A stretch of DNA of 64,000 bases from a virus (Duplodnaviria; Caudoviricetes): the IMG/VR virus record IMGVR_UViG_2639763197_000004, positions 1-64,000 of that record. One strand, given 5' to 3'. Numbering within the stretch: position 1 is the first letter of the stretch; each line of letters starts with the position of its first letter. The translations under genes and the position numbers were made by a program. Positions 27,904 through 53,693 of this stretch are shown here, in pieces. The notes under the pieces were generated by a model. It saw nothing but the letters and a program-made list of their open reading frames with translations, did not search any database and was not told the origin of the DNA.

Positions 27904-28178
27904 TGTCTTCCTCCTTTGATCAGGGCCTGGAACGCGGCCGGGTCGTTTCGGGACAGTGCGGCGACACCATGAATAGCCATGGTGAGCGCATGTTCTGTTT
28001 CATCGAACGCCCCGGCGCTGCGGATCTGTTCCACTTCGCTCCTGGTGCCGCTATAGATTTCCATCTTGAGTTTGCTAGCGCCCATAGCCAGGCGCTTATC
28101 CTTGTCGCGCTTGCGCTGGGCGCGTTTACGCTCGCGAGCCAGGCGGGTTTTGCGCTGTGTGGGTGATTCGTCTGTCAT
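27900..28178 (-). CDS. Hypothetical basic protein
   Basis: ATG at 28178, immediately after ribozyme copy 1. Confidence 0.6.
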   Translation of the reverse strand: MTDESPTQRKTRLARERKRAQRKRDKDKRLAMGASKLKMEIYSGTRSEVEQIRSAGAFDETEHALTMAIHGVAALSRNDPAAFQALIKGGRQ

Positions 28179-28180
28179 GG

Positions 28181-28247
28181 GTGGCTGCTCATCAGTACCG
28201 GACAACCACGTCCGGCAGACCGCCCCAGCAAGTCGGGACGGTTTCGC
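28181..28247 (-). ncRNA. Hammerhead ribozyme type II, copy 1
   Basis: GC-GAAAC-stem III-GUC|stem I (UGCCGGAC/GUCCGGUA)-CUGAUGA-GC; loop GUGGUU pairs with 3' AGCCAC. Confidence 0.88.
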
Positions 28248-31231: not shown

Positions 31232-31842
31232 AGGTCAGCCTCCGCAGGTGCAGGCTGACGGAACACGACCTTGCCCAGGTTCGGGTCAAACACCTGCCCG
31301 ATTTTCTGAATCATCGGCGGACGGGGTCCGGTGTATTTGCCAGGGGCCAAGCGATAGCGAGCCTTTTGTTTCTGGCTGCCGGGCTGAACCTCAATCACAT
31401 AGCCCGCACGCTTGAGCCAAACCAGATAAGAGCCAGCGGTTGAGACAGTTGTCGGCGTTACGGTTGAGGCCTGGGCCGCTAACTCGTTGGCGTCCAGTTC
31501 CCCAAGAATGCGCAGCGTGCGCCACATTGCTTCGGTGCCTTTGCCCGAATTGCTTGGTTTGCCTTCCTTGGTGAGGGAAGGGGCTTCAGCACCTACGTCC
31601 TTGATCAACCGCAGTGTTTGCGCTTTAAACAGCTCACCGGAAACTACCTCGACAAAGTCACCACGTATCAGCGACTGCACGTAGGTATTGACGACAGTTC
31701 GGTCTGTTTTGGAACGCTGGGTAATTTCGGCAATTTTGAAGCCGTCACGGCCTGCACGGATGGCTTCCCAGATGCGCTGGCGATTGCTTTTGCTGCCGCG
31801 CATTTCCAGATCAATGGATTTACGACCACGACCGCCAGCCAT
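31228..31842 (-). CDS. Winged-helix-like protein downstream of B
   Basis: MWRTLR, YL.WL..AGY, TGPRPP, VFDPN; start at ATG 31842. Confidence 0.65.
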   Translation of the reverse strand: MAGGRGRKSIDLEMRGSKSNRQRIWEAIRAGRDGFKIAEITQRSKTDRTVVNTYVQSLIRGDFVEVVSGELFKAQTLRLIKDVGAEAPSLTKEGKPSNSGKGTEAMWRTLRILGELDANELAAQASTVTPTTVSTAGSYLVWLKRAGYVIEVQPGSQKQKARYRLAPGKYTGPRPPMIQKIGQVFDPNLGKVVFRQPAPAEADL

Positions 31843-32564
31843 CACGCGCCCCTCCGTACAGGAGCCTCGCCGGTAAACCAGCCCCGTGAGCCCCAGCCAG
31901 CGAGGTCGATGCTGTCGATGCACATGGCTTGGGTTTCGCTATAAACCTTGTAGAGATTGACAGCGACACGACGCAGGCAGCCGCGCACCTTGACGCGCAG
32001 ATCTTCCAGCAGGTCATCGGCAAAACTCAGTTTCGGATAGCTGGCCTGGGCCAGGGCGCGCAGATCGTCGAGGGTCGCGGGTTGAGCGGGCACCCACTCC
32101 AACACCCGGTTATGCAGGCGCTCCAGTTTGGCCAGGCTACCCGGCACACGTTCTTCCCCGATCAGCACAATGGTGCCCTGACTGGCGTTATAGATGTCGG
32201 TCAACACGTTGGCGACGGCCTTTTCCAGCAGGTATTGCACGTCGTCTATTAGCAGGGGGCGACCACTGCGGGACAGTTGCTCGGCAACCTGATCAACCAT
32301 CACCGACAGAGTCAGACCAGGTGCGATACCCATCTCGCGCAGGATGGCTTGCAGAAAGGCTTTTTTGCTCCAGGTGTCGCGACACTCGACGTAATAGGCA
32401 CGGTGCTGGTTGGCTGCGAAGGCCGCACCAACGCTTTTACCCAGCCCACTCGCGCCATACATCACCACTAGCCCAGGCAACCCCGCAGGGCGTGCATGGG
32501 CACGGGCAATGGCGGCAGACAACAGGCCGACATTTGTCAGGGGAACAATCTTGGTAACACTCAT
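31842..32564 (-). CDS. Transposition ATPase, MuB-like
   Basis: Walker A GASGLGKS, Walker B LLIDD; follows the transposase. Confidence 0.92.
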   Translation of the reverse strand: MSVTKIVPLTNVGLLSAAIARAHARPAGLPGLVVMYGASGLGKSVGAAFAANQHRAYYVECRDTWSKKAFLQAILREMGIAPGLTLSVMVDQVAEQLSRSGRPLLIDDVQYLLEKAVANVLTDIYNASQGTIVLIGEERVPGSLAKLERLHNRVLEWVPAQPATLDDLRALAQASYPKLSFADDLLEDLRVKVRGCLRRVAVNLYKVYSETQAMCIDSIDLAGWGSRGWFTGEAPVRRGA

Positions 32565-32588: not shown

Positions 32589-34649
32589 TTAAGCGCGGGC
32601 CTGGTCGGCGAACGCGAACATTTGCTGAATGGATTTGAAGTCCGGGTGTTGCGGGTAGCGGGCATGCCACTGCATTTCCTCGGCCGTCGGCGATTCGCCG
32701 CTAGTGATGCGGCCATCGATCAGGAGCCAGAGGCGGTATCGGGCGGTTGGGTCGGCTGGCAATTCAAAGGCCGAGGCCTGCGGTGCAGCCAATTGAGCGA
32801 AGCGCTGGGCCTCGGCGAGTTGGTCAGGCGACAGGTCGTACTGGCTCGACTGCGAAGCAATGACGCGCATTTCCACGTCTTGCCCGGTAATGGTTTTGGC
32901 TTTTTTGACCAAGCGGGACAACTGGCCGCGCTCGCGCTTCTCGCTGGCTTTTTCCAGCATTGTTTTCGGCATGGCAGGGCTAGCGTTGCCGTCGAGCAGC
33001 GCCTCGCCGATCAGATCGCCCTCCAGGGAGTGGACCCAAACACGGCTGGCGTCACGGAAGTCATAGGCCACGCGGACCTGTTCCCCGTGGAAACCGTCCA
33101 GGTCTTTAAGGAAGTAGGTGCCGCTGTTCCATTGCACCTGGCAACGGTGAACGGTGCGCTCGACCTGTGGCCGGGTCAGGCTCTCGACGATGTTGCTGTC
33201 AGCCAACAATGGTTCCCAGCCCTCGGCCTCTGCCGACTTCCAAGACTCCATTGGGCTTTGGTGGCGCTTGCGCATGGTCGCAAGGTCGCGGAATTTCGGC
33301 AGACCGCGATGTGGGCGGCGGTTGTAGTCATCGAGTGCTTCTTGCAGGGCCGCGAAGAACACCGAAAATTCAGGCACAACTGTCGGCGCGATACCCAGGG
33401 CGAGCTGTTTACGGGACAGCTTGTGGGTCTTGGTAGCGGCCTCTTTATCCATGTCGGCGCCGATGTAACTGTCGAACGTCTTGGCGAGCCGAACCAGAAT
33501 GGTTTTATGGGGGCGCTCAATTACGCCGCGAGCCTGGGAGTTGTAGGGCAGCGAGTGCGTGATAGTGCCGCCCAGGCGGTCGTTGACCTCATAAACAACG
33601 GCGTTGTCAAAGCCGCTGCCGTTGTCCACGTAAAACACCTTGTACATGCCGCAACGACTTACGCCGTCACGTAAGGTGTCCAATGTGGCTAGGGTTGACT
33701 CGGCCAGGTTGACGGAGAAACCGACGATACGGCGGGTGCCCCAATCAATGACCATGGTGATTTCCGGGCGGAAAATCTGCCCCGTCAATGGATTGATCAC
33801 TTCGGCGTCAAAGGTGTGGCCGTCAGCCACCCACACGTCATTCGGCCAGAGCATGTCGGCCTGACGGCGGTTATAGGCTTTTAAGGCGTTCAGTTCGTGC
33901 GGACCCATGCGCCCATGCTCACGCACCGACGGGCTGAGTTTTTTCAGCCAGCGGCGTACCGCGTGAATGCTGGGGCAAACACTGGAATTGATGTTCTGGT
34001 GCAATTGCTTGAACTGTTCATAAGCGGCTTCAACGCTTGGTTTCTGCGGGCGTTGGTAGTGCTTGAGGAATGCTTGCGCCCAGGACGGGACGCTCATGTC
34101 TTTTTGACGACGGGCCGGAGCCAGGCCTATTTCGCCGTGGGCGCGGTAGTCCGCCAGCCAACGCTTGAGGGTGCGCTCAGACAGGGTGCGGTCTTCGGTC
34201 TTGCGGTCGTTGGCGCGGATTACTCGGTCATTCAGATACGGACTGAGGTCGCCGGTTTTCGCCAACCCAACCAGGGTAAGAATGGCGCGGTTTTGGCTGA
34301 CTACCTTGCTCATGCGTTCGATTTCACGCACGAACGCAAGGCGCGCAGTCATTACAGAAGACTGTGAGTCGTTCAAGCGTGACGCTTTTTCTGAGTCACG
34401 CCCGGCTATTACTATGTGTGAATCAACTGCTGGCTCAGGTGTATTACTGACGACAGCCGCTGTTATGAGCGCAGCTTGGGTTTCCTTCGGCAAGACAGCA
34501 AATGCATATTCAGTGGCCTTGCTGCCAAGACGTCGCTGACCTTCCCAGCACTCACGCAAGGCAAGCTTACGGATACCCTGCACCGTGCCTGGCATGCTGG
34601 GCAGCCCAGCCAGCTCTTGGGGCGAGTACCAACTACGCATGGTCGTCAC
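32589..34649 (-). CDS. DDE transposase, MuA-like
   Basis: N-terminal Mu HTH; WVADGH, YVDNGSGF, ARGVIER catalytic motifs. Confidence 0.95.
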   Translation of the reverse strand: MTTMRSWYSPQELAGLPSMPGTVQGIRKLALRECWEGQRRLGSKATEYAFAVLPKETQAALITAAVVSNTPEPAVDSHIVIAGRDSEKASRLNDSQSSVMTARLAFVREIERMSKVVSQNRAILTLVGLAKTGDLSPYLNDRVIRANDRKTEDRTLSERTLKRWLADYRAHGEIGLAPARRQKDMSVPSWAQAFLKHYQRPQKPSVEAAYEQFKQLHQNINSSVCPSIHAVRRWLKKLSPSVREHGRMGPHELNALKAYNRRQADMLWPNDVWVADGHTFDAEVINPLTGQIFRPEITMVIDWGTRRIVGFSVNLAESTLATLDTLRDGVSRCGMYKVFYVDNGSGFDNAVVYEVNDRLGGTITHSLPYNSQARGVIERPHKTILVRLAKTFDSYIGADMDKEAATKTHKLSRKQLALGIAPTVVPEFSVFFAALQEALDDYNRRPHRGLPKFRDLATMRKRHQSPMESWKSAEAEGWEPLLADSNIVESLTRPQVERTVHRCQVQWNSGTYFLKDLDGFHGEQVRVAYDFRDASRVWVHSLEGDLIGEALLDGNASPAMPKTMLEKASEKRERGQLSRLVKKAKTITGQDVEMRVIASQSSQYDLSPDQLAEAQRFAQLAAPQASAFELPADPTARYRLWLLIDGRITSGESPTAEEMQWHARYPQHPDFKSIQQMFAFADQARA

Positions 34650-35570: not shown

Positions 35571-36290
35571 ATGCCTTACGACGAAAAGAAACAAAAGAAA
35601 CTCGCTGGAAAAGATGTTTCTTTTCCATATTCGGGATTGGAAACTCGAATTGCGGCTGTTGCCGACCTTTACGAGTCTCGAAAACAGGCTGCGCTGACAG
35701 CCGATGCCGCGCTGTCTTCACTCCAGCGCTGGATCGCAGGCGAAGGTATGCCCGCGTTTGACTCCGTAGCGTTGCTGGCTACCGCCAAGGGCGTCTCTCT
35801 GGACTGGATTGCTACGGGCAAGGGGGAGATGTTTGTGGGGGCGGCCAAAAAGGAGGCTGTGGCAGACACTGAGGGTGTCTATTCTCACGTACCGCTTTAC
35901 GACGCCCGCTGTAGTGCGGGCCATGGCTCTTGGACCGACGGGACTAAGGTGCTCACGCACCTGGCTTTCACGACGTACTCACTGCGTAAGAAGGGCCTTG
36001 AGCCATCTAAGCTGTCAGCTATCCGTGTGGATGGTGATTCAATGGAAGGGCTGTTAAGCGATGGCGACACCGTCATGATTGACCATGGCCGCAATTCGCT
36101 TGAGGGTGAGGCGGTCTACGTGATTCGTCTCGATGACCACCTCTACGCAAAGCGCCTGCAACGGCAGTTTGACGGTTCGGTTAGCATCATCAGTCAGAAC
36201 AAGGAATACCAGCCAATGGTCGTCCCCAAGGAACGCTTGGGAGACCTGGAAATAATCGGCCGTGTGGTATGGGCTGGTGGCTGGATCTAA
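35571..36290 (+). CDS. Phage repressor, HTH plus S24 autopeptidase
   Basis: SAG.G cleavage site, V.GDSM, KRL catalytic motifs. Confidence 0.9.
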   Translation: MPYDEKKQKKLAGKDVSFPYSGLETRIAAVADLYESRKQAALTADAALSSLQRWIAGEGMPAFDSVALLATAKGVSLDWIATGKGEMFVGAAKKEAVADTEGVYSHVPLYDARCSAGHGSWTDGTKVLTHLAFTTYSLRKKGLEPSKLSAIRVDGDSMEGLLSDGDTVMIDHGRNSLEGEAVYVIRLDDHLYAKRLQRQFDGSVSIISQNKEYQPMVVPKERLGDLEIIGRVVWAGGWI

Positions 36291-36496: not shown

Positions 36497-37549
36497 CTAA
36501 CCCACAGAAGGCTGCGCAACCGCACCGATGCGCCTGTAAACGCGCTTGGTGATCTCCTGCTCCGAGTGCCCGAGAAGGAGGCTGGCGTCTGCGATATCTG
36601 TAATTTCGGATGCCGCCTTCGGTCGGATATCCTTGAACTGAAACTGTTGGATCTTCTCCGCGTCATCAACTCGTCCCTCACTGGCGGCCAAAGAGCGAGC
36701 AGCTTCTCGGGCGTCGTCCCACCGGTTACGCAGCATTTGTTGAGACACGCGCATCCCCGTTCTGCTGAGGATGAAGTGCTGCGAGTTGTGCTGGCTGTTC
36801 CTGGCAATGATGTCCTCAATGAGTAGGCCGAGGGTGTTCTTCACACCGCCTGCCTGCATTTGAATCCTGAGACGCTTGCCTGTTTTTCCCTGCTGCACGG
36901 TTAGGTAATCCCCCTCGATATCCCCCCGCCTCATTGCGATTACGTCTGCCGGGCGCTGGCCGGTCAGATAGGCCAAGTCCATCGCGTCCCTAAGCTCTTG
37001 TGGAGCCTTGCCATACACAGCGGTCCAAACCATTTCATTGGCGTAGTAGTCGCGGACCTTCTCTTTATTCTTCCGGACACCGGCGCAAGGGTTTTCCCGA
37101 TCCGTAAAGCCCCATTCTCGGGCCATGTTGTAGACGTGGGAGAGCAGGGCGATCTCTCTGTTTGCCCTAGTCTTCGCCGTTCTGGCGTCCCGGTACTGCG
37201 CAACCATGGAAGGGGTGATTGCATCGATGGGCGCCCCCTCGAACCCTTTGCGTAGGTGCTTGAGCTCTGCCTTGTTGTCTTTCTGCGTCCGCGGCGCTTT
37301 CTTCGGGATGATGTCCCGCTCGTACCTGTCAAAAATTCCCTTCATGATCTTCAGGTCTGCCGGCTTTGCCTTGGACTCAAGTTCGGCCCACTTGAGCCTG
37401 GCTTTGTCCAAATCTCCACCGAGAGACAATTCCTTTCCATTTGCATCTCGGTAGTAATAGCCGACCCACGCTGTACCGTTCTTGCGTGGGCGCTTGCGCC
37501 GAACCATCCCGGGGGGCAAGTCCCTATTCTCTGTCTTGCGGGGGCGCAT
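36497..37549 (-). CDS. int: Tyrosine integrase of the lambdoid prophage; last two codons supplied by the Mu-like end
   Basis: TGQR, KTG, KDIR, LLGH, VY catalytic motifs. Confidence 0.93.
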   Translation of the reverse strand: MRPRKTENRDLPPGMVRRKRPRKNGTAWVGYYYRDANGKELSLGGDLDKARLKWAELESKAKPADLKIMKGIFDRYERDIIPKKAPRTQKDNKAELKHLRKGFEGAPIDAITPSMVAQYRDARTAKTRANREIALLSHVYNMAREWGFTDRENPCAGVRKNKEKVRDYYANEMVWTAVYGKAPQELRDAMDLAYLTGQRPADVIAMRRGDIEGDYLTVQQGKTGKRLRIQMQAGGVKNTLGLLIEDIIARNSQHNSQHFILSRTGMRVSQQMLRNRWDDAREAARSLAASEGRVDDAEKIQQFQFKDIRPKAASEITDIADASLLLGHSEQEITKRVYRRIGAVAQPSVG

Positions 37550-37550
37550 A

Positions 37551-37793
37551 TCAGTTCACTCTTGAAAAGTCTGGCGTCCAAGCCGGTCGTGCCGGAGGCG
37601 GATTGTTCTCGACTATGCTGGGGCTGACCATGCCCAGCTTCATGCGCGCGAACATGCGGCCCACCAGGGGGCGACCACCACGGCTTTCGACGTAGACCCA
37701 GTTGCGGTCTTTGAGCCACTTTCGTTGGTGGGCTCGGTGTTTGTAACCGGTCAGGTCGGCGAGCTCGTCGTCCGACAGGATCTCTGCCTCCAT
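37551..37793 (-). CDS. Excisionase-like protein (DUF4224)
   Basis: LS.DELADLTGY...Q..WL; directly upstream of int. Confidence 0.8.
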   Translation of the reverse strand: MEAEILSDDELADLTGYKHRAHQRKWLKDRNWVYVESRGGRPLVGRMFARMKLGMVSPSIVENNPPPARPAWTPDFSRVN

Positions 37794-37795
37794 TA

Positions 37796-38017
37796 CTACC
37801 TCCCGCCGCCCGCTGTAGGCCGCGCTGTCTTGATGATGTGGATGATGAAACCGAAGGTGAGCAGCATCCAGGCGACGGTGCCGGCGAATGCTGCGATCAG
37901 GGGTTGTTCGGTACCGGTGGAGAGCAGCTCCGGCACCTGCCAGAAAAACCAGAAGGTGGACCCCGCCACGTACAACACGATGGCTGTCAAGAGCAGGGTG
38001 AGTTTCGTTGCGTACAT
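37796..38017 (-). CDS. Small two-TM membrane protein
   Basis: 73 aa, two hydrophobic segments, AAGGA SD. Confidence 0.65.
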   Translation of the reverse strand: MYATKLTLLLTAIVLYVAGSTFWFFWQVPELLSTGTEQPLIAAFAGTVAWMLLTFGFIIHIIKTARPTAGGGR

Positions 38018-38053
38018 GGGGTGTCCTTGCCGCGCTGGGCGGCAGAAGGTGGG

Positions 38054-38671
38054 TTACTGAGGTTTTGATTTCATCAGGTCGGAAATCTCATCCGCTTCCT
38101 TTTCGACCTGCCAGCGCTTCACCTCGGTCCAGTCGGCCGGGGCCTCCCATAGCAGAGCATCCAGGTCACGGTCGAAACCGGTCTTGGCCGCCTTGATCGC
38201 CTTGTACTGCTCCAGTTCATCCGGATCGACATCCTTCCAAGGGACGCTGACAAACCAGATGTTGCGCGGAGCCCCGTAGCCCCACAGGGTTGGTGCGTAC
38301 CATTTTCCTGCATCGGTGAGCATCGGCAGCCCTGGCTCCAAGTCGACCAGGCGCAGCGCGTGCTCGATGGGTGCCGGGGTTGGCAGCGATTTGATGTTGG
38401 CCCAGATTGCTTTGCCCGCTGGCGTGTTCTTGCGAGGCACCCACAGGCGCGTCTTCTTGTCGTGGCGGTAGATGTCCTGATCGGGCGTAGTTGCGAAGGT
38501 GAAGCCAGCAAAGGTGCCGGCGCGGTCGTAATTTTTCGAACCGGTGGCGCCGTGCTTCACAGCCAGCTCATCGTAGAGCTTGCCGGCGGCAATACGCAGC
38601 TCGAACAGGCGATCGATCTCGTCAACCATCGGGCCTTGGGTGATTCGGAAGTAGCGCTGATATACGCTCAT
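38054..38671 (-). CDS. Hypothetical phage protein
   Basis: ATG 38671 with GGAG SD. Confidence 0.65.
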   Translation of the reverse strand: MSVYQRYFRITQGPMVDEIDRLFELRIAAGKLYDELAVKHGATGSKNYDRAGTFAGFTFATTPDQDIYRHDKKTRLWVPRKNTPAGKAIWANIKSLPTPAPIEHALRLVDLEPGLPMLTDAGKWYAPTLWGYGAPRNIWFVSVPWKDVDPDELEQYKAIKAAKTGFDRDLDALLWEAPADWTEVKRWQVEKEADEISDLMKSKPQ

Positions 38672-38720
38672 GGCATAGCTCCGCCCGCCGCTCACCGGCA
38701 GGCATGTAGGGGGATTGGGG

Positions 38721-39785
38721 TTAGGCTGCTGGGTGTTGCGCTGTATCGCGGAAAACATCCATCTGCGCCGCGCCGTCGAGCCATGCCGCTGCGATCCGGT
38801 GTTCAGCCATTGCGGCGTATTCCGGGTTTAGTTCGCACAGGATCGATTTGCGACCTTCCTGCATGGCGACCACCGCCGTAGTGCCGGCACCGCCGAAAGG
38901 GTCAAGCACGACGCCGCCGAGTGGCGCGCCGGCCAGAATGCAGGGTCGGATCAGGTCCGGAGGGAAGGTCGCGAAGTGCGCACCCTTGAAACCTTGCGTC
39001 GGCACTGTCCACACACTGCGCTTGTTACGAGTATCCAATGAATAGGCGCTTTCCTCTCGATCTGGCCGGTGTGTTCCCAGTGATTGCCCAGGGATAGCTT
39101 GCTCTCGCTTTGAATCATCGCGCTTGAAACTATCGCGCTTGCTACGAACGGCTTTCATTGGCCCGTTTGACTTTCCGGGCACTCGGTCGCTGCCCTGCTG
39201 TTGCTCGATATCCTGCGCCAGTCGCTTGATCGAGCTGTGCGCTACAGGCTCCTTGATCGCATCCTGGTCATAGTAATAGCGCGGTGACTTGCTCAACAGG
39301 AACAGGTATTCATGCGACTTTGTGCACCGGTCTCTGGTGGATTCAGGCATGGGGTTCGGCTTGTGCCAAATGATGTCCTGGCGCAGGTACCAACCATCAT
39401 CTTGAAGGGCGAAGGCGAGGCGCCAGGGGATGCCCATGAGGTCTTTCGGCTTGATGCCAGTCGGATCTCGAGGGCGGACGCTCATTGTGCGAGCCTCCAG
39501 CTTTTCATCTACGCCGCGAGTGGTCCTGCCCCCGTTGGCGTAGCTATCGCCCATGTTCACCCAGATTGTTCCGTCATTGCGCAGCACCCGACGTACCTCG
39601 CGAAACACTTCAACGAGGCGCCCGACGAATTCAGCAGGTGTCTCCTCCAAGCCGATCTGGTCGGCCATACCGTAGTCACGCAGCCCGTAGTAGGGCGGAG
39701 ACGTGACGCAGGTGTTCACCGACTGGTCCTTCAGCGTCCGCATCGACTCAATGCAGTCGCCGATCAAAACGCGATGTTGTTTCAT
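38721..39785 (-). CDS. Orphan N4-C/N6-A DNA methyltransferase (beta class)
   Basis: TSPPY motif IV precedes VLDPFGGAGTT motif I; HFATFP. Confidence 0.93.
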   Translation of the reverse strand: MKQHRVLIGDCIESMRTLKDQSVNTCVTSPPYYGLRDYGMADQIGLEETPAEFVGRLVEVFREVRRVLRNDGTIWVNMGDSYANGGRTTRGVDEKLEARTMSVRPRDPTGIKPKDLMGIPWRLAFALQDDGWYLRQDIIWHKPNPMPESTRDRCTKSHEYLFLLSKSPRYYYDQDAIKEPVAHSSIKRLAQDIEQQQGSDRVPGKSNGPMKAVRSKRDSFKRDDSKREQAIPGQSLGTHRPDREESAYSLDTRNKRSVWTVPTQGFKGAHFATFPPDLIRPCILAGAPLGGVVLDPFGGAGTTAVVAMQEGRKSILCELNPEYAAMAEHRIAAAWLDGAAQMDVFRDTAQHPAA

Positions 39786-39894
39786 GGGCGAGTTAGTCCT
39801 TGCCGCTATAGCGGCTGACTTTGAAGGGGGAGGGGTTACATCAAATCAGTTGTGCCAGTGCCAGCAGGCACCAGCAGTAGGCGGGGAGTTGGAT

Positions 39895-40209
39895 TCAGTA
39901 CGGCACGCATTCTTTGCAGTTCGCCGTCCAACCCCTGGAGCCGCAGCCATTGCAGACGTGTTCATCCTTGGCTGGCTCTGCTGGCTTGAGCGTATCCAGG
40001 ATGTCGCGCAGGTAGCCGGTTGCGATTGATGGCTGCCTTCCTGCGCATTCAATCAACCGAGTGACAAACGTTATCGCTGAATCCGCTCGCTCATCCTCTG
40101 CGGTCAGCAGGGCTTGCAGGGCGTCACGCTCGGCGGTTACCCGGGTCAGTGCTTCGGCGTAAATGCGTCCTGCGTCTGGATGCCCAGTGCTAATCGTTAT
40201 CTCACTCAT
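39895..40209 (-). CDS. Hypothetical protein with C-terminal Cys4 ribbon
   Basis: GGAGG SD; CNGC...CKEC. Confidence 0.6.
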   Translation of the reverse strand: MSEITISTGHPDAGRIYAEALTRVTAERDALQALLTAEDERADSAITFVTRLIECAGRQPSIATGYLRDILDTLKPAEPAKDEHVCNGCGSRGWTANCKECVPY

Positions 40210-40233
40210 GACCCACCTCCAAATAATCAGAAA

Positions 40234-40359
40234 TCACAACCGACGGCCTCTGTAGGCAACCGGCATAAACACAAAATTGCCTCGTTTGTCTTTGATGACG
40301 GTCACCTTGTCACTGGTCAGACGCTTCATCAGATCTTCGAAACTGTATTGGCGGACCAT
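40234..40359 (-). CDS. Small 41-aa ORF absent from the track (MVRQYSFEDLMKRL...)
   Basis: Open frame with upstream AAGG, filling the gap after the RT. Confidence 0.4.
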   Translation of the reverse strand: MVRQYSFEDLMKRLTSDKVTVIKDKRGNFVFMPVAYRGRRL

Positions 40360-40404
40360 AGGAGTAGCCTTGCCGGGCCATGCCCTGGCGGTGGAGTTGG
40401 TGGG

Positions 40405-41496
40405 TTACTTCTTCAGGAATGTCTTGGTCAGCGCCGCATTGACGCTGTTGCCGCGCTTCAACACGACGCGAGCCAGTGCTGCCCTGTCTTTCTCGCTGTG
40501 GCTGGCCTGGCTGAGCAGGCCGAAGTAGCTGTTTGCGGTCTCGCGCAGATCCTCGGCGGGCGCCGCGGCTGTTCGCTTCAGCGCCTGGGCCAGGGATCGT
40601 TTGCGGGTGGTTCGCCGCCAGGGCTTGATGACGTGACCAACGAAGTCGACGCCCCGATCCACGGGTTGCAGAATCGTCTTAGTGGGGTTCAGCTTAGCGC
40701 CGAGCCTTGGCAGGAACGCTTCGACCTCGGCCAACCACTGGTTGAGTTGCTGCGGGGACTCATGCAGAAACACGAAGTCATCGACGTACCGGATGTAGTG
40801 CTTGGCGCGCAGCGTGTGCTTGGCGAACTGGTCCAGGGCGTCGAGGTAGACGTTCGCGAAGAACTGCGACGACAGGTTGCCGATCGGCAGGCCGAGGTGA
40901 GCGGGCTGCGCAACCAGGCGCTTGTGCTGCGGCACCCGGTTGAACAGGTGCGCCGGGCTGCGGATCTCGTAATCCTCACGCGGGTCGTGCATGAGGATCT
41001 GCGTGGCTAGGGCCAGCCACCAGGGTTCGGTGATCTTGGCCTCCAGTTGCTTGCGCAGCACGGCCTTGTCGATGGCGACGAAGAAGTTTGCCAGGTCGCA
41101 CTTCAGGTAGAAGATCGGTTTCGACCAGTTCTGCGAGGCGCTGCGGATCTTCGACTCAAGCCGTGTGGCGGCGTACAGCGTGCCGCGCCCTGGAATGCAT
41201 GCGCAACTGTCCGCTATGAATCTGGCGTAGAAGCGCGGTGCCACATGGTTGTACATGAGGTGGTGGACGACGCGGTCCCGAAAGGCTGCTGCCCAGACTT
41301 CCCGGGCTTTCGGTCGGGTGACCACGAAACAGATAGATCGGCCTGGCCGGTATGTGCCGGCAATCAGGTCGTCGTGCAGTTGGATCAGGTTCCGCTCCAG
41401 GTCGATCTCGAAAGCCAGCGCGCTGTCGCTGTTGCGCTTGGTGCGCCGGCAGTCGTAATAGGCCTGCACCAGATCCTGAAACGGGTAGGGGCCCAA
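40405..41496 (-). CDS. DGR reverse transcriptase
   Basis: KAREV..FRDRVVH, D..NFF, GLPIGNLSSQ, YIRYVDD, GVDFVG; start uncertain (TTG 41496 assumed). Confidence 0.95.
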   Translation of the reverse strand: MGPYPFQDLVQAYYDCRRTKRNSDSALAFEIDLERNLIQLHDDLIAGTYRPGRSICFVVTRPKAREVWAAAFRDRVVHHLMYNHVAPRFYARFIADSCACIPGRGTLYAATRLESKIRSASQNWSKPIFYLKCDLANFFVAIDKAVLRKQLEAKITEPWWLALATQILMHDPREDYEIRSPAHLFNRVPQHKRLVAQPAHLGLPIGNLSSQFFANVYLDALDQFAKHTLRAKHYIRYVDDFVFLHESPQQLNQWLAEVEAFLPRLGAKLNPTKTILQPVDRGVDFVGHVIKPWRRTTRKRSLAQALKRTAAAPAEDLRETANSYFGLLSQASHSEKDRAALARVVLKRGNSVNAALTKTFLKK

Positions 41497-41500
41497 AGTC

Positions 41501-41605
41501 GAATCTGCGGACGGGGCGGACACGGAGCTCGTTGTTCTTGTCGTTGTTGTTCTGATTGCCATCATCGAAGTTCATGTTGAATGCGTTGTTGGCTGAGCGC
41601 TGCGA
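41501..41605 (-). repeat. DGR template repeat (TR)
   Basis: AAC-rich 105 bp; differs from both VRs only at its adenines. Confidence 0.96.
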
Positions 41606-41776
41606 CCTATCGTGCTATCTACGTCGCCAGGCCGAAGGCAAAGCCGATCAGCAAGGAAACTGCGCAAGACCTGCCCGGTCGCTTTAGACCGGCGGTATCT
41701 CTTGTGCGCATGGCGGTGACCCAAGGGTCAGCGGCACGACCAGATTCAATTCGCACAGACCAGAAAGCCGTAACCT

Positions 41777-42133
41777 TCAGGTAGCGGGCGCGGTTGGGGT
41801 GGAGCGTTTCCAGGCGTTTGCTTGCTTGCCTATTGAGGCCGTTACCTCAATTGCCTGGGCGTGTTGCGGAATGCTGATGAAGCGGTTGTCTTTGAAGAGT
41901 CGCATCAGGAACTCGACCACTTGCACCTTCTCGACCAGCAAGGTGAGGTGTGGCCGCTTGTCCTGGGTTGCGTTGGCCCGGGCAATTAGCATCAGCACTT
42001 CGATGCATTCGTCGATCACTCGCTTGCCGAGTGACTGCTTCAGGTCGCGGGGGATGTTCCGGGTCATCGTTGTGGCCATATGCAGCAGGCCCATCGAAGC
42101 CTTGTAGATCGCAAGTTCCGTATGCATTGCCAT
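41777..42133 (-). CDS. avd: DGR accessory variability determinant (Avd-like four-helix bundle)
   Basis: 118-aa basic helical protein, 'PRDLK.SLG' and 'IGKQ.NAW'; between targets and TR. Confidence 0.88.
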   Translation of the reverse strand: MAMHTELAIYKASMGLLHMATTMTRNIPRDLKQSLGKRVIDECIEVLMLIARANATQDKRPHLTLLVEKVQVVEFLMRLFKDNRFISIPQHAQAIEVTASIGKQANAWKRSTPTAPAT

Positions 42134-42155
42134 GTGGCTCGCTCTCCAAGAGCAA

Positions 42156-42173
42156 CCGGCCGCAAGCGGCCGG
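42156..42173. other. GC hairpin downstream of VR2; probable DGR target-recognition element
   Basis: CCGGCCGC-AA-GCGGCCGG. Confidence 0.65.
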
Positions 42174-42187
42174 ATTAAATAAGCGAA

Positions 42188-42808
42188 TTAATCAATAAGC
42201 TCGCTGCGGACGGGGCGGACACGGAGCTCGTCGTACTTGCCGAGGCTGAGCTGAGTGCCACCACCGAAGGTCATGTAGAAAGCGTAGTAGGCTGAGCGCT
42301 GCGAACTCGACCAGTACCAGGTGTCGCGGAACGCTTCAGCACCGCCTTCCTGGAACACGGCGTGGAGGGTCTGCGCCGGGTCTTCTTCGCTGTACAGCAG
42401 GCCTACAGGCTCGCTGTTTGGGTTGTCGCCATTGCGCGAGCTCGCCCAGTTCTCTTCGGTGGTCGGCTTGAAGTGGCGGTACTGCAGCTCCTGCACATCG
42501 CGCGCCGGGATCGCCCAGTCGTTGTAACCGCCAATGCTCAGGGCCAGCACCTTCGCTGCAATCTCGCTGCCCGCCGCCGCCATGGCCTGGGTGTTGGCCA
42601 AGCTGTCGGTGAAGCTGTCGGCACCTTCGATCTTGACGCCGTACTCGCCCCACTTGCCGACCAGTTCATGCGCCGCCCCGGAGCTGATGTGCAGGGAGCG
42701 CTTGCCGGTGGATGGGTCGCGGGTAATGCCGGTGACGAAGCCGCCGCCGTAGGCCTGGCCGATTGCCGGGATGGTTGCTGCTGGCGCTGCTTTCTCAACT
42801 GCGGACAT
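42188..42808 (-). CDS. DGR target 2, Lcl/DUF1566-like CLec-fold protein
   Basis: DWAIPA..., WYWSSSQ, C-terminal VRPVR; VR at the 3' end; start at ATG 42808. Confidence 0.9.
   Translation of the reverse strand: MSAVEKAAPAATIPAIGQAYGGGFVTGITRDPSTGKRSLHISSGAAHELVGKWGEYGVKIEGADSFTDSLANTQAMAAAGSEIAAKVLALSIGGYNDWAIPARDVQELQYRHFKPTTEENWASSRNGDNPNSEPVGLLYSEEDPAQTLHAVFQEGGAEAFRDTWYWSSSQRSAYYAFYMTFGGGTQLSLGKYDELRVRPVRSELID
42204..42304 (-). repeat. DGR variable repeat VR2
   Basis: 101 bp, 16 mismatches to TR, all at TR adenines. Confidence 0.95.
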
Positions 42809-42887
42809 GGTGCTTCCTCTTTTCGAAGGCAACAAAAAAGGCGCTGTGCGCCCTGGTGTGCCGGATCAAGAACGAATGGATGAAGGA

Positions 42888-43499
42888 TTAAATAAAGAAT
42901 CTGCGGACGGGGCGGACACGGAGCTCGTCGAGCTTGACGTCGTAGCCCTGATGGCCATCAACGAAGTCCACGTAGAATGCGAAGTTGGCTGAGCGCTGCG
43001 AGGATGACCAGTAGTAGCAGTCTTGGGCGAATACCTCGGGGCAGTTCAGCCACCCCTGGTACAGCTCGGCAGCGGCCGGCAGGTAGAAGTCATGATGACC
43101 ATCGGCCTGGTACTCGGCGCACGCATCGGCGGCGGGATACTTGCGCTCGTCGTCGTTACCAATCAGCACCTGGGTGTTGGTGTAGCCGTCGGTTTTGCTG
43201 AGCCCCTTTACCTCAACTCCACGGCCACCCCATTCAAGGCTGCCCACATCTTTTTCGGCGAAGATCAGGTAATGCGCTGGGACGTCACCGCGAGCTTGAA
43301 CGAATCCGCCATTGATACCGCCCTGGCCTGGCCAAGTCTGGCCGATCTCAGGAGCGGCTGACGCCACTGCCGGCTGAACATTCGCGGCCGGTGGCAGAGC
43401 ATGCACAAACAAGCTAGCCGCGAGCAGCTGAATCATACGTTCGGCAGTGCCTTTGATTTTGAGGCCGTCAGCCTCGATAGAAATTGTCTTGGCTTTCAT
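42888..43499 (-). CDS. DGR target 1, Lcl/DUF1566-like CLec-fold protein
   Basis: DFYLPA..EL, YYWSSSQ, VRPVRR; paralog of target 2. Confidence 0.9.
   Translation of the reverse strand: MKAKTISIEADGLKIKGTAERMIQLLAASLFVHALPPAANVQPAVASAAPEIGQTWPGQGGINGGFVQARGDVPAHYLIFAEKDVGSLEWGGRGVEVKGLSKTDGYTNTQVLIGNDDERKYPAADACAEYQADGHHDFYLPAAAELYQGWLNCPEVFAQDCYYWSSSQRSANFAFYVDFVDGHQGYDVKLDELRVRPVRRFFI
42897..43001 (-). repeat. DGR variable repeat VR1
   Basis: 105 bp, 15 mismatches to TR, all at TR adenines. Confidence 0.95.
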
Positions 43500-43557
43500 C
43501 GGTGTTCCTCGGGTAAGCGCCGCCCTCCGCGTTACCGGATGCAGCGAGTAGGGTGGG

Positions 43558-43869
43558 TTATTCGTCGTGGTAGATGCGAAGGGCTTCGCGGTTGTAGGCG
43601 AGCTGCAGTTTTGCCGACACGTTTTCGGGTATCACGTATTCGTGTCGCGGCGGTGCGAGAAACTGAGCTGATCCCGCTTGGCCCAGGCCGTGCAGGTGGT
43701 GAATCATCAGCGTCATGGCCTCGCCCTGTTCCTTGATGCTGTGCCAGGCCATCAGGTCAGCCAAGGCCTGGCGGGTTCCGGACATGGTGTGGAGTCGCAA
43801 TTCTTCCTCGCCGCGAGTCTTTCGCCTCGCCGCAGTCTTTGCCGATCGGTCTTTCTGCGCGGCAGCCAT
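43558..43869 (-). CDS. Hypothetical phage protein
   Basis: GAGG SD; 103 aa. Confidence 0.65.
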   Translation of the reverse strand: MAAAQKDRSAKTAARRKTRGEEELRLHTMSGTRQALADLMAWHSIKEQGEAMTLMIHHLHGLGQAGSAQFLAPPRHEYVIPENVSAKLQLAYNREALRIYHDE

Positions 43870-43953
43870 GGCCTACCTCTTCTATTCCGCTGGCCGGCAG
43901 TGCGAGCCAGGTTTGACGTTTGCGTTGCTGGATGCGGGTTATGGGGCGCATGG

Positions 43954-44616
43954 TCAGGCTCCCAGGCGGTGGGCTTGCGCCCGTGCCTTGTCTGCGACCT
44001 CGTCGACCATGCGATTGAGTTCCAGGTTGAACTGGACCAGCTCCTTGTGCAGGTTTGCGATGTAGTCCTCGTCGCGGTAAATCGTCTCGATATAGAGCTG
44101 ACACTCCTCATCCTGACGGGAATCGAACGAAATGAAGTCCCACCACTTGCGACCTGTAACGAACATGCATCCCTGAATCTGCGGGATGTGTTCTTCGGGC
44201 ATGCCTTCGAGCCAGGTCCTGATGTGAATTGCTTCGTTGAAAGGGCACTTTGATTCAGTACCGCCGTCATCGTTGATCAGGCCGTCGGGAGAGCAGCCAA
44301 GCCAGTCGTACTTGGGGTGGACGATGAACTCGGAGGGGAGGACGATGTTGCCGGTCAGCATCTCGTAGGCGTCCTGGGCCTTTTGCTCTTCAGCGTGCCC
44401 CCATTTCAGGGAGGCGCTGCTGACGTTGTGTTTGGACTTCTTTGCCAGCCGCTCGAAGCACAGTTCGCGCATATAGGAGGTGCGCGCGCCCATCGGCTCG
44501 CGCTTCCCATGTTTGTCAGGCTTTCCCCAGGCCAACGCGTCTTTAAAGCGGCTGGCTGTCACGCGACCAGATCGGTCTGCATGCCACTTGTCCGTGCCCT
44601 GAAGCTCAGTTCTCAC
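43954..44616 (-). CDS. YqaJ/lambda-exonuclease family protein
   Basis: W...R.G.VTAS, WG...E, SPDGL, ESKCP, QIQG. Confidence 0.92.
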   Translation of the reverse strand: MRTELQGTDKWHADRSGRVTASRFKDALAWGKPDKHGKREPMGARTSYMRELCFERLAKKSKHNVSSASLKWGHAEEQKAQDAYEMLTGNIVLPSEFIVHPKYDWLGCSPDGLINDDGGTESKCPFNEAIHIRTWLEGMPEEHIPQIQGCMFVTGRKWWDFISFDSRQDEECQLYIETIYRDEDYIANLHKELVQFNLELNRMVDEVADKARAQAHRLGA

Positions 44617-45605
44617 TACGCGGCCTCCTCTGAATGGGGCTGGTCTGCGTTGGAGCCGCTCATGTCGGTGAAGTCAGCATCAACGGTCGCCGCCATGCTC
44701 TTGAGTGCTTCGTGGCATTCAAGACCGATTGCCGCTCGCTGCTTCGGCTTGAGGCCCGCCCAAGCTGCTGCGTAGGCTTCGATGTCCTGGCGCTTCGCGA
44801 CGACCAGAAGATCCGCAAATACTCCGTCGATGTCAGGCGATGAAGATTTAGGCCCGAACGACACGCCTGCCGCGGCAGCGGTGTTCGCAGTCTGCTTGGC
44901 GGGGGTGATATCGATCTCGCCGCCGTACGAGTCCTCGAATTCGTCAGGGGTGTAAACACCAAGGATCACGTCAGGGCAGAAGAGTCGCGCCCATTTTTTG
45001 GTGACCAGGTATGCGATTTGCTGCTTCGGGTCTTCCGCCCAGAGCGTAGAGTTGCGTGTGCGAACCTGGGTCAGCAACAGCTCAAGAGTGCGGGGTTCGT
45101 CTTCGCCTTTGAAAGTTGCCCAGACCTTGATCCCGAGGCCTTTTTCGTCGTCAAAGCTCCAGGCCGGGACACGATACTTTTTGGGCTCGCCTGTATCCTC
45201 GTCCTTCTTGGTCTTACTGGTGACTTCGCGCATCTTCCCGATGACGTTTTCCCAGGAGCCGAACCACTCAAAGTTCAAGCGACCTTTGACCGGCGCCTTG
45301 GCGGTGATCACTGCGTTCACGAGCTGGGCCTCATAGCTCAATGCGCCACCGTTGACGATAAAGGTCTTCTGCGCCACCGCGAATGGGTTCATCTGCCATT
45401 GCATCGCTTGCAGCACTACCGCCATGCAGTCAGCCTGGTTGCCTTTGAGGTGCTTAGGGACTGTTGTAACGCCCTTTGACATCATCATCGCGAGATCGCT
45501 CATCGACTTCATGGTGCCCGGGTCGAGGATGAGTGCTGCAGCGTTGTGCGATGGGTCGTGATAAGTGGCGAGGCCTGTTTGGGCTTGGGTGTCTGTGTCG
45601 GTCAT
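44616..45605 (-). CDS. RecT-like single-strand annealing protein
   Basis: P.HL.G..ADC.AV..QA.QW.MNPFAVAQKT, W..DPKQQ, PDVILGVY; paired with the exonuclease. Confidence 0.85.
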   Translation of the reverse strand: MTDTDTQAQTGLATYHDPSHNAAALILDPGTMKSMSDLAMMMSKGVTTVPKHLKGNQADCMAVVLQAMQWQMNPFAVAQKTFIVNGGALSYEAQLVNAVITAKAPVKGRLNFEWFGSWENVIGKMREVTSKTKKDEDTGEPKKYRVPAWSFDDEKGLGIKVWATFKGEDEPRTLELLLTQVRTRNSTLWAEDPKQQIAYLVTKKWARLFCPDVILGVYTPDEFEDSYGGEIDITPAKQTANTAAAAGVSFGPKSSSPDIDGVFADLLVVAKRQDIEAYAAAWAGLKPKQRAAIGLECHEALKSMAATVDADFTDMSGSNADQPHSEEAA

Positions 45606-45658
45606 AGCGCTCTCCGTAGCCAGCATGGGTTGTGCTGGCCGTCAGATGGAAAGGGTGG

Positions 45659-48362: not shown

Positions 48363-48905
48363 TCAGTACGGCTTTTCAGCCTTGCCTTGGTCTTGCAAGC
48401 TTTTGATGTGAAACAGGCCGTCCAGCATGGTGTCCATCTGTTTGGCCAGTTGGATGCGAAGGCCGTCTTTCAGGGCGCCCGATACGTTGCGCACGCTCTG
48501 GGTCATTTCCTTTGTGAAGTCTTCGGCGCAGACCTGAGTCATGATGTATTCGGCTCGGGTGACCGTGTTGTAGTCGCTCGTTGCCGCTTTGCCGGTGCGC
48601 GGTTCAACCTTGGCTGACCAGTAAGCGTTCACGGTCTTTTCCAACTCTTTGCGGATGGTGGTGGCCGGGCCTTCTGGCTCGCCCCAGGTGTTAACTCGGC
48701 GATATTCGCGTTCGAACGAACCGTTGATGGTTTCGTTGATTGCGGCTTCAATTTGCGCTGTTACGCGCTCGTTGAAGATCTTGTCGATGCGTTTTTTCAG
48801 TTCCGCAGCGACCATGCCGGAAAGGTCATCGCCGGCGCGCAGAAGCTCATCAGATACCTTGGCTACGATTGCGGTTTTCAGATCGTCTTCGTTGATGTTG
48901 AGCAT
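48363..48905 (-). CDS. Hypothetical phage protein
   Basis: GGAG SD; preceded by a hairpin. Confidence 0.65.
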   Translation of the reverse strand: MLNINEDDLKTAIVAKVSDELLRAGDDLSGMVAAELKKRIDKIFNERVTAQIEAAINETINGSFEREYRRVNTWGEPEGPATTIRKELEKTVNAYWSAKVEPRTGKAATSDYNTVTRAEYIMTQVCAEDFTKEMTQSVRNVSGALKDGLRIQLAKQMDTMLDGLFHIKSLQDQGKAEKPY

Positions 48906-52961: not shown

Positions 52962-53693
52962 CTAAAGCTTCCGGGCATTCCAGACAAGCAGAACACGGGC
53001 CTGGATATGCACTTTGGCGAGCATATCCCCCTCGATCATGATTGCTGGGTACACGGGGTTATCTGAAATCATGCGCAGGGAGCCGCCTGTCAGGCGCTGA
53101 AGCCGCTTAATGAAAAGCTCGCCCTCCAGCGTGAAGACATAGATCGCATCGGTTCGGATCTCGGTTATGCCGCGATCTACCAGCAGGGCGTCGCCATTAC
53201 GGAAAGTGCCCTCCATGCTGTCACCATCGCCATCGATGATGGCCAGGTTCTCTAGCTTGGAATACGACAAGCCCTGAGTCTTCAGCCAGTCGAGATGAAC
53301 GGTAATATCCCTGATCACTTCGATGTGATCGGGCGGCACTCTTCCCGGCCCCATTGAGCCGGCCACGTCCAGCTGAGGGATCGTGATGAAGCTGGAATCT
53401 TGCGATTTTCGGCGAGACTCAATCAGCACGACATTGCTCTCCTTGCTTGCAGGCTGCGCTCCACCATCCACCCCCTTACGCATCGGCCCCTTTCCAGTAG
53501 CCAGCCACATCGGCATCACCTTCAGATAGTCGGCAGCGATCAAAAGATTCTGCCCCTCAATCGTCTTTGTTTTCCCTGAGATCCAGTCGTTTACAGACGG
53601 CGCGCGAATGCCACAAGCGCGAGCCAGGGCGGCCTGCGTAACTTTTGGCGGGCCGGCCATCACCAGTTTTAACCGTTCTTGAAGTGTCCTCAT
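52962..53693 (-). CDS. CI-like repressor, HTH plus S24 peptidase
   Basis: TQAALARACGI...SVNDW HTH, GDSM, KRL; divergent from cro. Confidence 0.92.
   Translation of the reverse strand: MRTLQERLKLVMAGPPKVTQAALARACGIRAPSVNDWISGKTKTIEGQNLLIAADYLKVMPMWLATGKGPMRKGVDGGAQPASKESNVVLIESRRKSQDSSFITIPQLDVAGSMGPGRVPPDHIEVIRDITVHLDWLKTQGLSYSKLENLAIIDGDGDSMEGTFRNGDALLVDRGITEIRTDAIYVFTLEGELFIKRLQRLTGGSLRMISDNPVYPAIMIEGDMLAKVHIQARVLLVWNARKL

Follow-up and report, generated by a model that had tools for sequence, protein, structure and literature searches.

Structure of the retroelement cassette

We analyzed a stretch of viral DNA of 64,000 nucleotides (Duplodnaviria; Caudoviricetes), corresponding to positions 1 to 64,000 of the IMG/VR record IMGVR_UViG_2639763197_000004; this whole stretch is hereafter called the window. 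At positions 40405 to 43499 it contains a diversity-generating retroelement (DGR) with two target genes. All parts of the DGR cassette are located on the minus strand, in the order VP1 and VP2 (the targets), avd, structured RNA, template repeat (TR) and reverse transcriptase (RT) gene.

The first target gene, VP1 (type A; 42888..43499), is an open reading frame (ORF) encoding 203 amino acids (aa) and has a 105-nt variable repeat, VR1 (42897..43001), at its 3′ end. The second one, VP2 (type B; 42188..42808), encodes 206 aa and carries VR2 at its 3′ end; 101 nt of VR2 (42204..42304) are aligned to TR, the homology stopping 4 nt earlier than in VR1. The VP2 ORF is open to 42835, and its true start is likely the ATG at 42808, which is found behind a GAGGAAG Shine-Dalgarno sequence; the public protein collection holds the 206-aa form and not the 215-aa form. 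Downstream of both VRs, and not of TR, GC-rich hairpins were revealed. The hairpin at 42838..42854 (minus strand), about 45 nt after VR1, is followed by a T run and may be a terminator and/or the hairpin by which the DGR recognizes its target. The hairpin at 42156..42173 (minus strand), about 31 nt after VR2, consists of seven G-C pairs and a 4-nt loop (z -3.1; none of 200 shuffled sequences folds as well).

The avd gene (41777..42133) encodes a protein of 118 aa that matches the bAvd family (PF22296; 48.4 bits at a cut-off of 40) and phrog_3206, “Avd protein of DGR” (E 2e-30); its match to NCBIfam NF033474 (51.1 bits) is under the cut-off of 80 for that model. The structured RNA RT-15 (Rfam RF03018; 41603..41793) begins in the last bases of avd and reaches 3 nt into TR; it was matched over its full length (1-192), and its 182.4 bits (E 1.2e-45) exceed the gathering score of 82. 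TR itself (41501..41605) has a length of 105 nt and contains 33 adenines. The RT ORF (40405..41565) matches RVT_1 (59.7 bits, cut-off 29.6) and phrog_1423 (E 1.8e-116), and its translation contains the stretches IRYVDDFVF, with the YVDD motif, and IGNLSSQFFAN. No DGR-specific RT model was found among its NCBIfam matches, where the group II intron RT model scored 92.5, far under its cut-off of 300. The start of the RT gene is uncertain, since the first in-frame ATG lies inside TR and related proteins match only from about 41496, where the conserved RT sequence starts (their alignments begin at query residues 1-6). TR and the RT coding sequence are not separated by an intergenic spacer. It should be mentioned that a 139-aa ORF at 41156-41575 (minus strand), which starts within TR in the frame of the targets and overlaps the 5′ part of the RT gene, is probably spurious.

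Adenine-specific differences between TR and the variable repeats

TR (A33 C35 G21 T16), VR1 and VR2 were compared in a three-way ungapped alignment anchored on their common 3′ end. TR differs from VR1 at 15 positions and from VR2 at 16 positions, and every one of these 31 differences falls on a TR adenine (15/15 and 16/16). The probability that 31 random mismatches would all fall on A is about (0.31)^31, or roughly 3e-16. The substitutions are not the same in the two VRs: nine adenines are altered in both and 10 are intact in both. The order target1-target2-avd-TR-RT, the numbers of adenine-specific differences, the dissimilar substitutions in VR1 and VR2 and the intact RT motifs had all been proposed in a first-pass annotation made from the sequence alone, and our analysis agrees with it in each of these respects.

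In the frame of the targets TR reads S-Q-R-S-A-N-N-A-F-N-M-N-F-D-D-G-N-Q-N-N-N-D-K-N-N-E, with nine AAC codons and one AAT codon, and 30 of the 33 adenines occupy codon positions 1 or 2 (three are in the third position). In practice 14 codons vary in each target, which gives about 1e14 variants per target (15^10 x 3 x 4^3). VR1 encodes residues 167-201 of the 203 residues of VP1. At least the last 29 nt are identical in TR, VR1 and VR2, and there is no difference of the IMH/IMH* kind (initiation of mutagenic homing) within the repeat. This common GC-rich end occurs three times in the whole 91.5-kb record from which the window is taken. Therefore no fibre gene serves as a remote target, and a third target in a fibre gene was rejected.

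There is hardly any doubt that the cassette is a canonical DGR and that it is currently active. In it RT, together with Avd and the TR-containing RNA, with the RT-15 structure ahead, copies TR with adenine-specific errors into the 3′ ends of the two adjacent genes.

Variation of the targets in nature

A contig of 3,328 nt from another bacterial genome assembly (L006) is identical to the window at 43529-40202 save 19 positions. All 19 differences are located in VR2 at TR-adenine positions, and none was found at the other 3,309 positions, which include TR and VR1.

To this pair of sequences we added a survey of VR alleles in public proteins, namely the members of the 90%-identity clusters of VP1 and VP2. 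Four of the 11 other members of the VP1 cluster differ from the window protein only within residues 172-191 and represent three distinct alleles: P0001 (9 differences), P0277 and P0280 (14 differences, the same allele) and P0282 (9 differences). Among the seven other members of the VP2 cluster, three differ only within residues 174-193: P0284 (12 differences), P0285 (12 differences; the allele of L006) and P0288 (6 differences). The remaining members either are fragments, or have differences beyond the VR too, or match the window protein exactly (P0274). In total, four VR1 and four VR2 alleles, those of the window included, are found on identical scaffolds. Since VR-only alleles exist for each of them, both targets are diversified in nature. 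The first-pass annotation had looked to variation between strains as the sign of current activity, and the 19 differences in L006 together with the scaffold-identical alleles of both VRs provide it.

Four public sequencing runs covering the locus consist of assembled contigs, matched at a likeness of at least 90%, a limit that alleles other than those of the window would not reach. In run X13 the unitigs break within VR2, and the piece with the window allele has a depth of 7.7 versus 18-21 in the flanks, which hints that VR2 is a mixture of alleles in this sample. Run X11, an RNA library, covers the whole stretch; carry-over of DNA is possible, so this was not taken as a sign of expression. 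The sole non-VR difference common to all four runs is at 41679 (T on the plus strand of the window, A in the runs), inside RT-15 at a stem position of one hairpin; X15 also has a C>T change at 41821. The ends of L006 coincide with the borders of the cassette (40202 and 43529 in the window), and X15 contains loose ends at 43530, 43531 and 43567 that lead to another upstream flank.

The target proteins

Both targets match phrog_4245 (E 1.3e-30 for VP1 and 5.8e-30 for VP2). Their matches to Lcl_C/DUF1566 (PF07603), 29.8 and 28.5 bits, respectively, are both under the gathering cut-off of 34.9; many close VP1 homologues carry a precomputed PF07603 match, and several betaproteobacterial counterparts pass the cut-off (e.g., with 46.2 and 39.9 bits). 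Initially the targets were described as paralogs of about 200 aa. Their sizes and a kinship at the profile level were confirmed: in a profile comparison the whole domain aligns with 33% identity and an hhalign probability of 100%. A close kinship was not, as BLASTP aligns just the TR-templated last 45 residues. Furthermore, VP1 has a 46-residue N-terminal extension, and VP2 has an insertion of about 43 residues and no such extension.

Neither of the two sequences contains a signal peptide, lipobox, transmembrane segment or fibre/anchor domain, as the initial description had it. A candidate signal peptide at VP1 residues 22-34 was ruled out: this hydrophobic segment is a confident helix, packed within the N-terminal module, with 20 residues ahead of it, and lacks a charged n-region.

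The VP1 structure was predicted with AlphaFold2 (AF2) on a diverse alignment of 121 sequences (pLDDT 93.6, pTM 0.79); a model built on a shallow alignment (49 sequences, all at least 68% identical) had a pLDDT of 48 and was discarded. The model consists of a beta-hairpin (5-18), a helix (19-34), a less confident linker and a compact DUF1566/C-type-lectin-like domain (54-203). Its best structural match is the C-terminal domain of Legionella Lcl (Lcl-CTD; 8Q4E, chain 8q4e_A), with a Foldseek E of 4.4e-6, TMt 0.70 and a Z score of 13.9 (rmsd 3.7 over 121 residues), and this was also the sole match in a profile search against PDB sequences (E 8.4e-10). It is followed by the Bacteroides fimbrial protein 4EPS (Z 13.3), the C-terminal domain of Bdellovibrio Bd2740 (Z 11.0), C-type-lectin-like domains in general (Z up to about 8.7), TvpA (Z 6.8) and Mtd (Z 6.7), the likeness to Mtd being confined to the lectin domain. 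Small stand-alone look-alikes were also found in the viral structure library BFVD, including an uncharacterised 186-aa protein of Pseudomonas phage D3. A search of the ESM Atlas with VP1 residues 1-50 gave no usable match.

Most relatives of VP1 are small as well. A search for homologues of near length with an E threshold of 0.001 revealed 867 proteins, and a length of 203 aa is shared by the majority of the 120 listed; a search for longer homologues found one protein, which is weak evidence that fused forms are rare. An exhaustive search of representatives gave 3,639 relatives; the 150 listed are mostly 160-260 aa long and include a few giant proteins with multiple repeats. When 49 close VP1 relatives are aligned, the columns are on average 82% identical. 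The scaffold hardly changes in this alignment, the VR positions vary freely, and a small number of versions exist for the first 46 residues. The adenines of the Q184 and K189 codons are unaltered across the VP1 family, which argues for selection on the target proteins.

Position of the cassette in the phage genome

The cassette belongs to a lambda-like siphovirus prophage, of a temperate Pseudomonas phage, that occupies the window from 36.5 kb on. From left to right its minus-strand genes are int, xis, an ORF of unknown function, a DNA methyltransferase gene, a further unknown ORF, the DGR, phrog_5439, the YqaJ exonuclease gene, recT, more early ORFs and the gene of a cI-type repressor (52962-53693). 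From cI leftward to int, all family-scanned ORFs are on the minus strand and have early or lysogeny functions. The downstream flank of the cassette (methyltransferase, unknown ORF, xis and int; 36497..39785) includes the N6/N4 DNA methyltransferase (38721-39785), the excisionase (37551-37793) and the tyrosine integrase (36497-37549), and the upstream flank the YqaJ-type exonuclease and RecT (43954..45626), all on the minus strand. The small conserved early gene phrog_5439 (43558..43869, minus strand; 103 aa) is placed directly upstream of VP1 in many relatives according to tblastn synteny. The plus-strand genes after cI are cro, cII, O and DnaB homologues, NinG and terminase. The remainder of the record has the genes for portal, capsid, major tail protein, tape measure, M/L/K, a J protein of 1,326 aa, endolysin and Rz, as well as a side-fibre ORF accompanied by a Tfa-like chaperone.

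The structural genes, which include those of the J fibre, the side fibre and Tfa, are thus grouped apart from the cassette on the plus strand, from 62.6 to 85.9 kb; the tail module is located at about 71-86 kb on the plus strand and the side-fibre genes at about 84.4-85.9 kb. The gene order bears out the placement of the cassette in the first-pass annotation, between exo/recT and the methyltransferase/xis/int genes of a leftward early operon. We infer from it that the cassette is an accessory module (about 40202..43529) in a leftward, cI-proximal operon resembling the PL operon. The contig ends in L006 and X15 suggest that the module moves between phage backgrounds.

Distribution and placement of related cassettes

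With the RT as a query, 79 related loci were retrieved from genome contigs and scanned for A-tolerant repeats (runs of at least 60 nt with zero non-A mismatches); several loci are cut by contig ends, so that the numbers of VRs are lower bounds. Three VRs were detected in eight loci, two in 52, one in 11 and none in eight. At least two VRs upstream of TR are therefore present in 60 of the 79 loci, and RT occurs together with Avd and TR/VR pairs in 71. In the eight loci with three VRs (L012, L027, L036, L039, L043, L056, L062 and L065) the third one is located 2.5-5.5 kb upstream of TR, and in L012, L027, L036, L039, L056 and L065 it sits in a further VP1/VP2-like gene as judged by tblastn.

Pseudomonas loci have the two-target layout, and so do loci of Janthinobacterium, Undibacterium, Gallionella, Sideroxydans, Methylophilaceae, Chromobacterium and others, where the targets are smaller (about 118-158 aa). 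Across the lineage, in either gene order, a type-A target, which has the N-terminal extension, goes together with a type-B target, which has none. Both this pairing and the placement of the cassette are found repeatedly in temperate phages of Pseudomonas and of betaproteobacteria.

Flanks of up to 6 kb were surveyed by tblastn with proteins of the window phage and a few integrases. An integrase gene was revealed in 21 of the 79 loci, in 19 of them downstream on the RT strand, and Mu Gam or Mor in three. None of the 79 loci matches the tape measure protein, J, major capsid protein, portal or major tail protein of the window phage within these flanks. A Pfam scan of 150 ORFs from eight non-Pseudomonas loci likewise revealed no tail gene; in five of them (L043, L051, L055, L064 and L070) an integrase gene lies downstream on the same strand. 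In L050 the cassette is placed between Mu transposase/MuB and Gam/Mor; in L054 DUF2303, a C5-methylase and a Bro-N protein are encoded close by; and in L048 a ParB-like gene precedes the cassette and host genes follow it.

The cassette is also carried, at the same position, by isolated phages. Cruim01 has two targets of 203 and 205 aa and an annotated RT-15; it is listed as a siphovirus, and the accessible part of its description does not mention a DGR (PMC11256456). Phage phPA-G has one target, downstream of cI. In Burkholderia phage Magia (MT701587), a myophage according to its description, RecT is followed by two small targets, avd, RT and integrase, in this order; the DGR targets are called “relatively short reading frames” in the available text (PMC7883833). 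As Magia is a myophage and Cruim01 a siphovirus, the cassette is not tied to one tail type. Judged by gene order, the early or lysogeny-proximal placement is shown to be conserved in phages of both lambdoid and Mu-like genome architecture and of at least two kinds of tail.

A further case is Pseudomonas phage Medea1 (MW862109). Both DUF1566 target genes are intact there and occupy the same early position (L088, 6244-7552), while avd and TR are absent and RT is reduced to a 74-residue C-terminal remnant with an internal stop (48452-48673 of the record). By these features the Medea1 locus is a decayed DGR with preserved targets. The DGR machinery, of which Medea1 retains no more than this RT remnant, is therefore dispensable.

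Comparison with known systems

The model DGR of Bordetella phage BPP-1 (mtd-avd-TR-brt) has the same order of target, avd, TR and RT and the same adenine-specific changes from TR to VR as the window DGR. Common to both are also the location of the VR at the 3′ end of a C-type-lectin-fold domain, the GC-rich identical 3′ ends of VR and TR, and a GC hairpin downstream of the VR. In BPP-1 this hairpin is found a few nucleotides after the VR, at variance with the distances of about 31 and 45 nt in the window. Unlike BPP-1, the window has two tandem targets instead of one; they are about 200 aa long and lack Mtd-like N-terminal domains; and their genes belong to an early operon instead of coming last among the tail genes. 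Moreover, the RT-15 RNA is placed upstream of TR in the window, and TR abuts or overlaps the RT ORF with no spacer.

Short DUF1566-only targets with VRs of the CLec2 kind form category “d” in the survey of Wu et al. (2018), as far as its compared sections go (PMC5758913), and the window targets are alike. A two-target DUF1566 DGR is pictured as an example in part of another paper (PMC6642488). In the sections that we compared, the surveys of category “d” do not put such DGRs in phage early operons. According to the relevant section of Wu et al., a DGR is counted as phage-associated only if structural genes flank it within 20 kb (PMC5758913); an early-operon cassette like that of the window could therefore be missed, and the rule may be a blind spot for the whole lineage. 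The category “d” exemplar, Legionella LdtA, is a surface lipoprotein, whereas the window targets have no lipoprotein signal.

Magia belongs to the same lineage (its RT is 67% identical to that of the window) and has the same layout, with RecT, then small lectin-fold targets, avd and RT, then integrase. It differs in being a myophage, in the size of the targets (120 and 154 aa) and in having a third target about 6 kb upstream. In the accessible part of their paper its authors suggested only adaptation or a change of host range (PMC7883833).

Lcl-CTD, the closest structural match of the lectin-like domain, is described in the part consulted as a secreted, trimeric, glycosaminoglycan-binding head on a collagen-like stalk (PMC11162425); in contrast to VP1 and VP2 it is not DGR-diversified. 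In cyanobacteria and multicellular bacteria, intracellular DGR targets fused to signalling domains are reported in the sections available to us (PMC7517822, PMC10907252). These provide a precedent for DGR-diversified lectin-fold domains working inside the cell. They are, however, cellular multi-domain proteins, whereas the window targets are phage-encoded and stand-alone and lack any part for signalling or for an effector function. In the surveys, as far as these were compared, tail proteins predominate among the targets of phage DGRs (PMC8144416; PMC12636319; bioRxiv 10.1101/2024.10.15.618418).

The mechanism of DGRs, multi-target DGRs and short DUF1566-only targets are known from the literature, and the authors of the Magia paper noticed the shortness of its targets. 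Our literature search revealed no paper on the conserved early-operon placement or on the pairing of types A and B; the supplementary tables of two surveys (Wu 2018, Roux 2021) were outside this search and may list members. Nor did the search reveal a paper that calls stand-alone early-operon DGR targets intracellular or tests their function.

Possible function of the targets

The usual view of phage DGRs is that they vary tail-fibre specificity, and an active DGR with a conserved early placement contrasts with it. A classical tail-fibre role of VP1 and VP2 is argued against by the early position, the lack of a fibre or anchor domain, the independence of tail type and the near-absence of fused forms. 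As the single most likely reading, held tentatively, we propose that the targets are early, soluble, intracellular binders. VP1 and VP2 would be made with the early genes as soluble proteins, not as components of tail fibres. Within the infected or induced cell they would serve as binding modules open to diversification, and might for instance bind and neutralise variable proteins of the host or of a competitor. Variation by the DGR would let the phage lineage re-tune these binders as hosts change.

Several observations weigh against this proposal. The first-pass annotation had likewise regarded the targets as non-structural; the finding of the cassette in early regions of a siphovirus, of the myophage Magia and of Mu-like elements favors it, while the fold does not, because every solved structural relative (Lcl-CTD, the Bacteroides fimbrial protein, Bd2740, Mtd and TvpA) is an extracellular binder. 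In BFVD the fold is mostly the C-terminal domain of long proteins; one of these is named as a tail fibre protein, one has a Peptidase S74 domain, and another is a collagen triple-helix protein. The N-terminal module of VP1, which is conserved across distant type-A relatives, could be a docking element. PADLOC gave no match for VP1, VP2, Avd or the flanking unknown ORFs, and NCBIfam contained no family for the targets or these ORFs, although no search was aimed at anti-defence families. The assignment to an early operon derives from gene order and strand, and the tblastn survey for structural genes used five queries from the window phage and is weak for distant phages. The cassette had been described as far from any tail gene; this is correct for the prophage map, yet on the excised circular genome it would lie only several kb from the side-fibre genes, on the opposite strand. 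Just such a neighbourhood is seen on the linear map of Magia. Finally, in all four sequencing runs the contigs covering VR1 and VR2 carry the window alleles unchanged, and the diversification is therefore not constant.

It may further be supposed, with more doubt, that such binders amount to an adaptive intracellular repertoire in temperate phages of Pseudomonas and betaproteobacteria. Two stand-alone lectin-fold proteins, produced early in infection and continually rewritten by a DGR, would neutralise variable defence proteins of the host or components of competing phages, so that the tropism switching known for DGRs would reach into the cytoplasm. Intracellular action, if true, would define a new functional class of DGR targets and a natural system of programmable intracellular binders. 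The question is experimentally tractable, since the isolated phages Cruim01, phPA-G and Magia carry the cassette.

A different reading, which we regard as unlikely and nevertheless as the strongest of the alternatives, takes the targets for virion-associated accessory receptor-binding proteins. The type-A protein would dock on the tail via its hairpin and helix, perhaps carrying the type-B protein, and adsorption would be switched as by Mtd, the early position being a historical accident. The use of this fold at the C-termini of long proteins that are named as phage tail fibres or resemble them is in line with such a role, as are the common fold of Mtd and TvpA, the persistence of the type-A N-terminal module in distant relatives, which would suit docking, and the predominance of tail proteins among phage DGR targets in the compared parts of the surveys (PMC8144416; PMC12636319). 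It is at odds with the location of the genes among early genes, on the strand opposite to the late operon, and with the occurrence of the same small pair in a siphovirus, a myophage and Mu-like phages, whose tail tips differ. Besides, only a 34-residue module precedes the lectin domain of VP1, type B has no extra domain at all, and a single fused longer form was found. A virion or extracellular role, if true, would mean that the early region can encode and diversify accessory proteins for receptor binding.

Extracellular action would not have to involve the virion. The targets might be soluble lectins that accumulate in the cytoplasm and, after release at lysis, act on debris or on the surfaces of neighbouring cells, by masking receptors, reducing futile adsorption of progeny or blocking competitors. 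Such a role would reconcile the absence of a signal peptide with the glycan- or surface-binding extracellular relatives in all solved cases; it is pure conjecture, however, for which our literature search found no precedent, and we judge it quite improbable.

Less probable still is expression of the targets from the prophage in lysogens, where they would be variable sensors or blockers of superinfecting phages and provide a lysogenic-conversion defence. VR2 has changed between two otherwise identical prophage copies in bacterial assemblies, and homing products must therefore become fixed in lysogens. In lambdoid phages the accessory region next to int commonly carries lysogeny-expressed cargo, and the cassette occupies such a region. 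On the other hand, the VR change could equally have arisen in the lytic cycle followed by re-lysogenisation; the targets have neither an effector domain nor a PADLOC match; and a scan for the consensus revealed no sigma-70-like promoter in 39800-44000, against a mean of 1.0 in shuffled sequences.

That the cassette is a selfishly maintained retroelement, with targets of no use to the phage, is scarcely credible: the loss of avd, TR and most of the RT gene in Medea1 could be read in this way, but Medea1 keeps both target genes intact after the RT loss, the target scaffolds are strongly conserved over the 49 aligned sequences, in which variation falls mainly in the VR and the N-terminal segment, the third codon position is avoided by TR adenines (3/33), and the Q184 and K189 adenines do not change.

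Other features of the record

Since a Mu-like prophage adjoins the lambda-like one, the 91.5-kb “provirus” record is a composite of two phages; the two prophages abut, the second, unrelated one being joined to the int end of the first. This Mu-like transposable myovirus prophage occupies about 1.9 to 36.3 kb of the window (1900-36300) and contains genes for a transposase (32589-34649), a MuB-like protein (31842-32564), a late activator, lysis proteins, terminase, portal, capsid, sheath, tube, baseplate and a fibre chaperone, as well as its own S24 repressor (35571-36290, plus strand).

The phrog_5439 gene next to the cassette, which is kept beside it in many Pseudomonas loci, also has a weaker match to phrog_4093, and a phrog_4093 protein is encoded in the neighbouring Mu-like prophage as well (27900-28205). 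At the right end of the record, beyond the lysis genes (G000, 88832-91303; L086, 4832-7303), we found genes for an SOS-response-associated peptidase (SRAP; phrog_1599) and UmuD/UmuC-like proteins. Magia likewise carries an SRAP gene adjoining its integrase gene.

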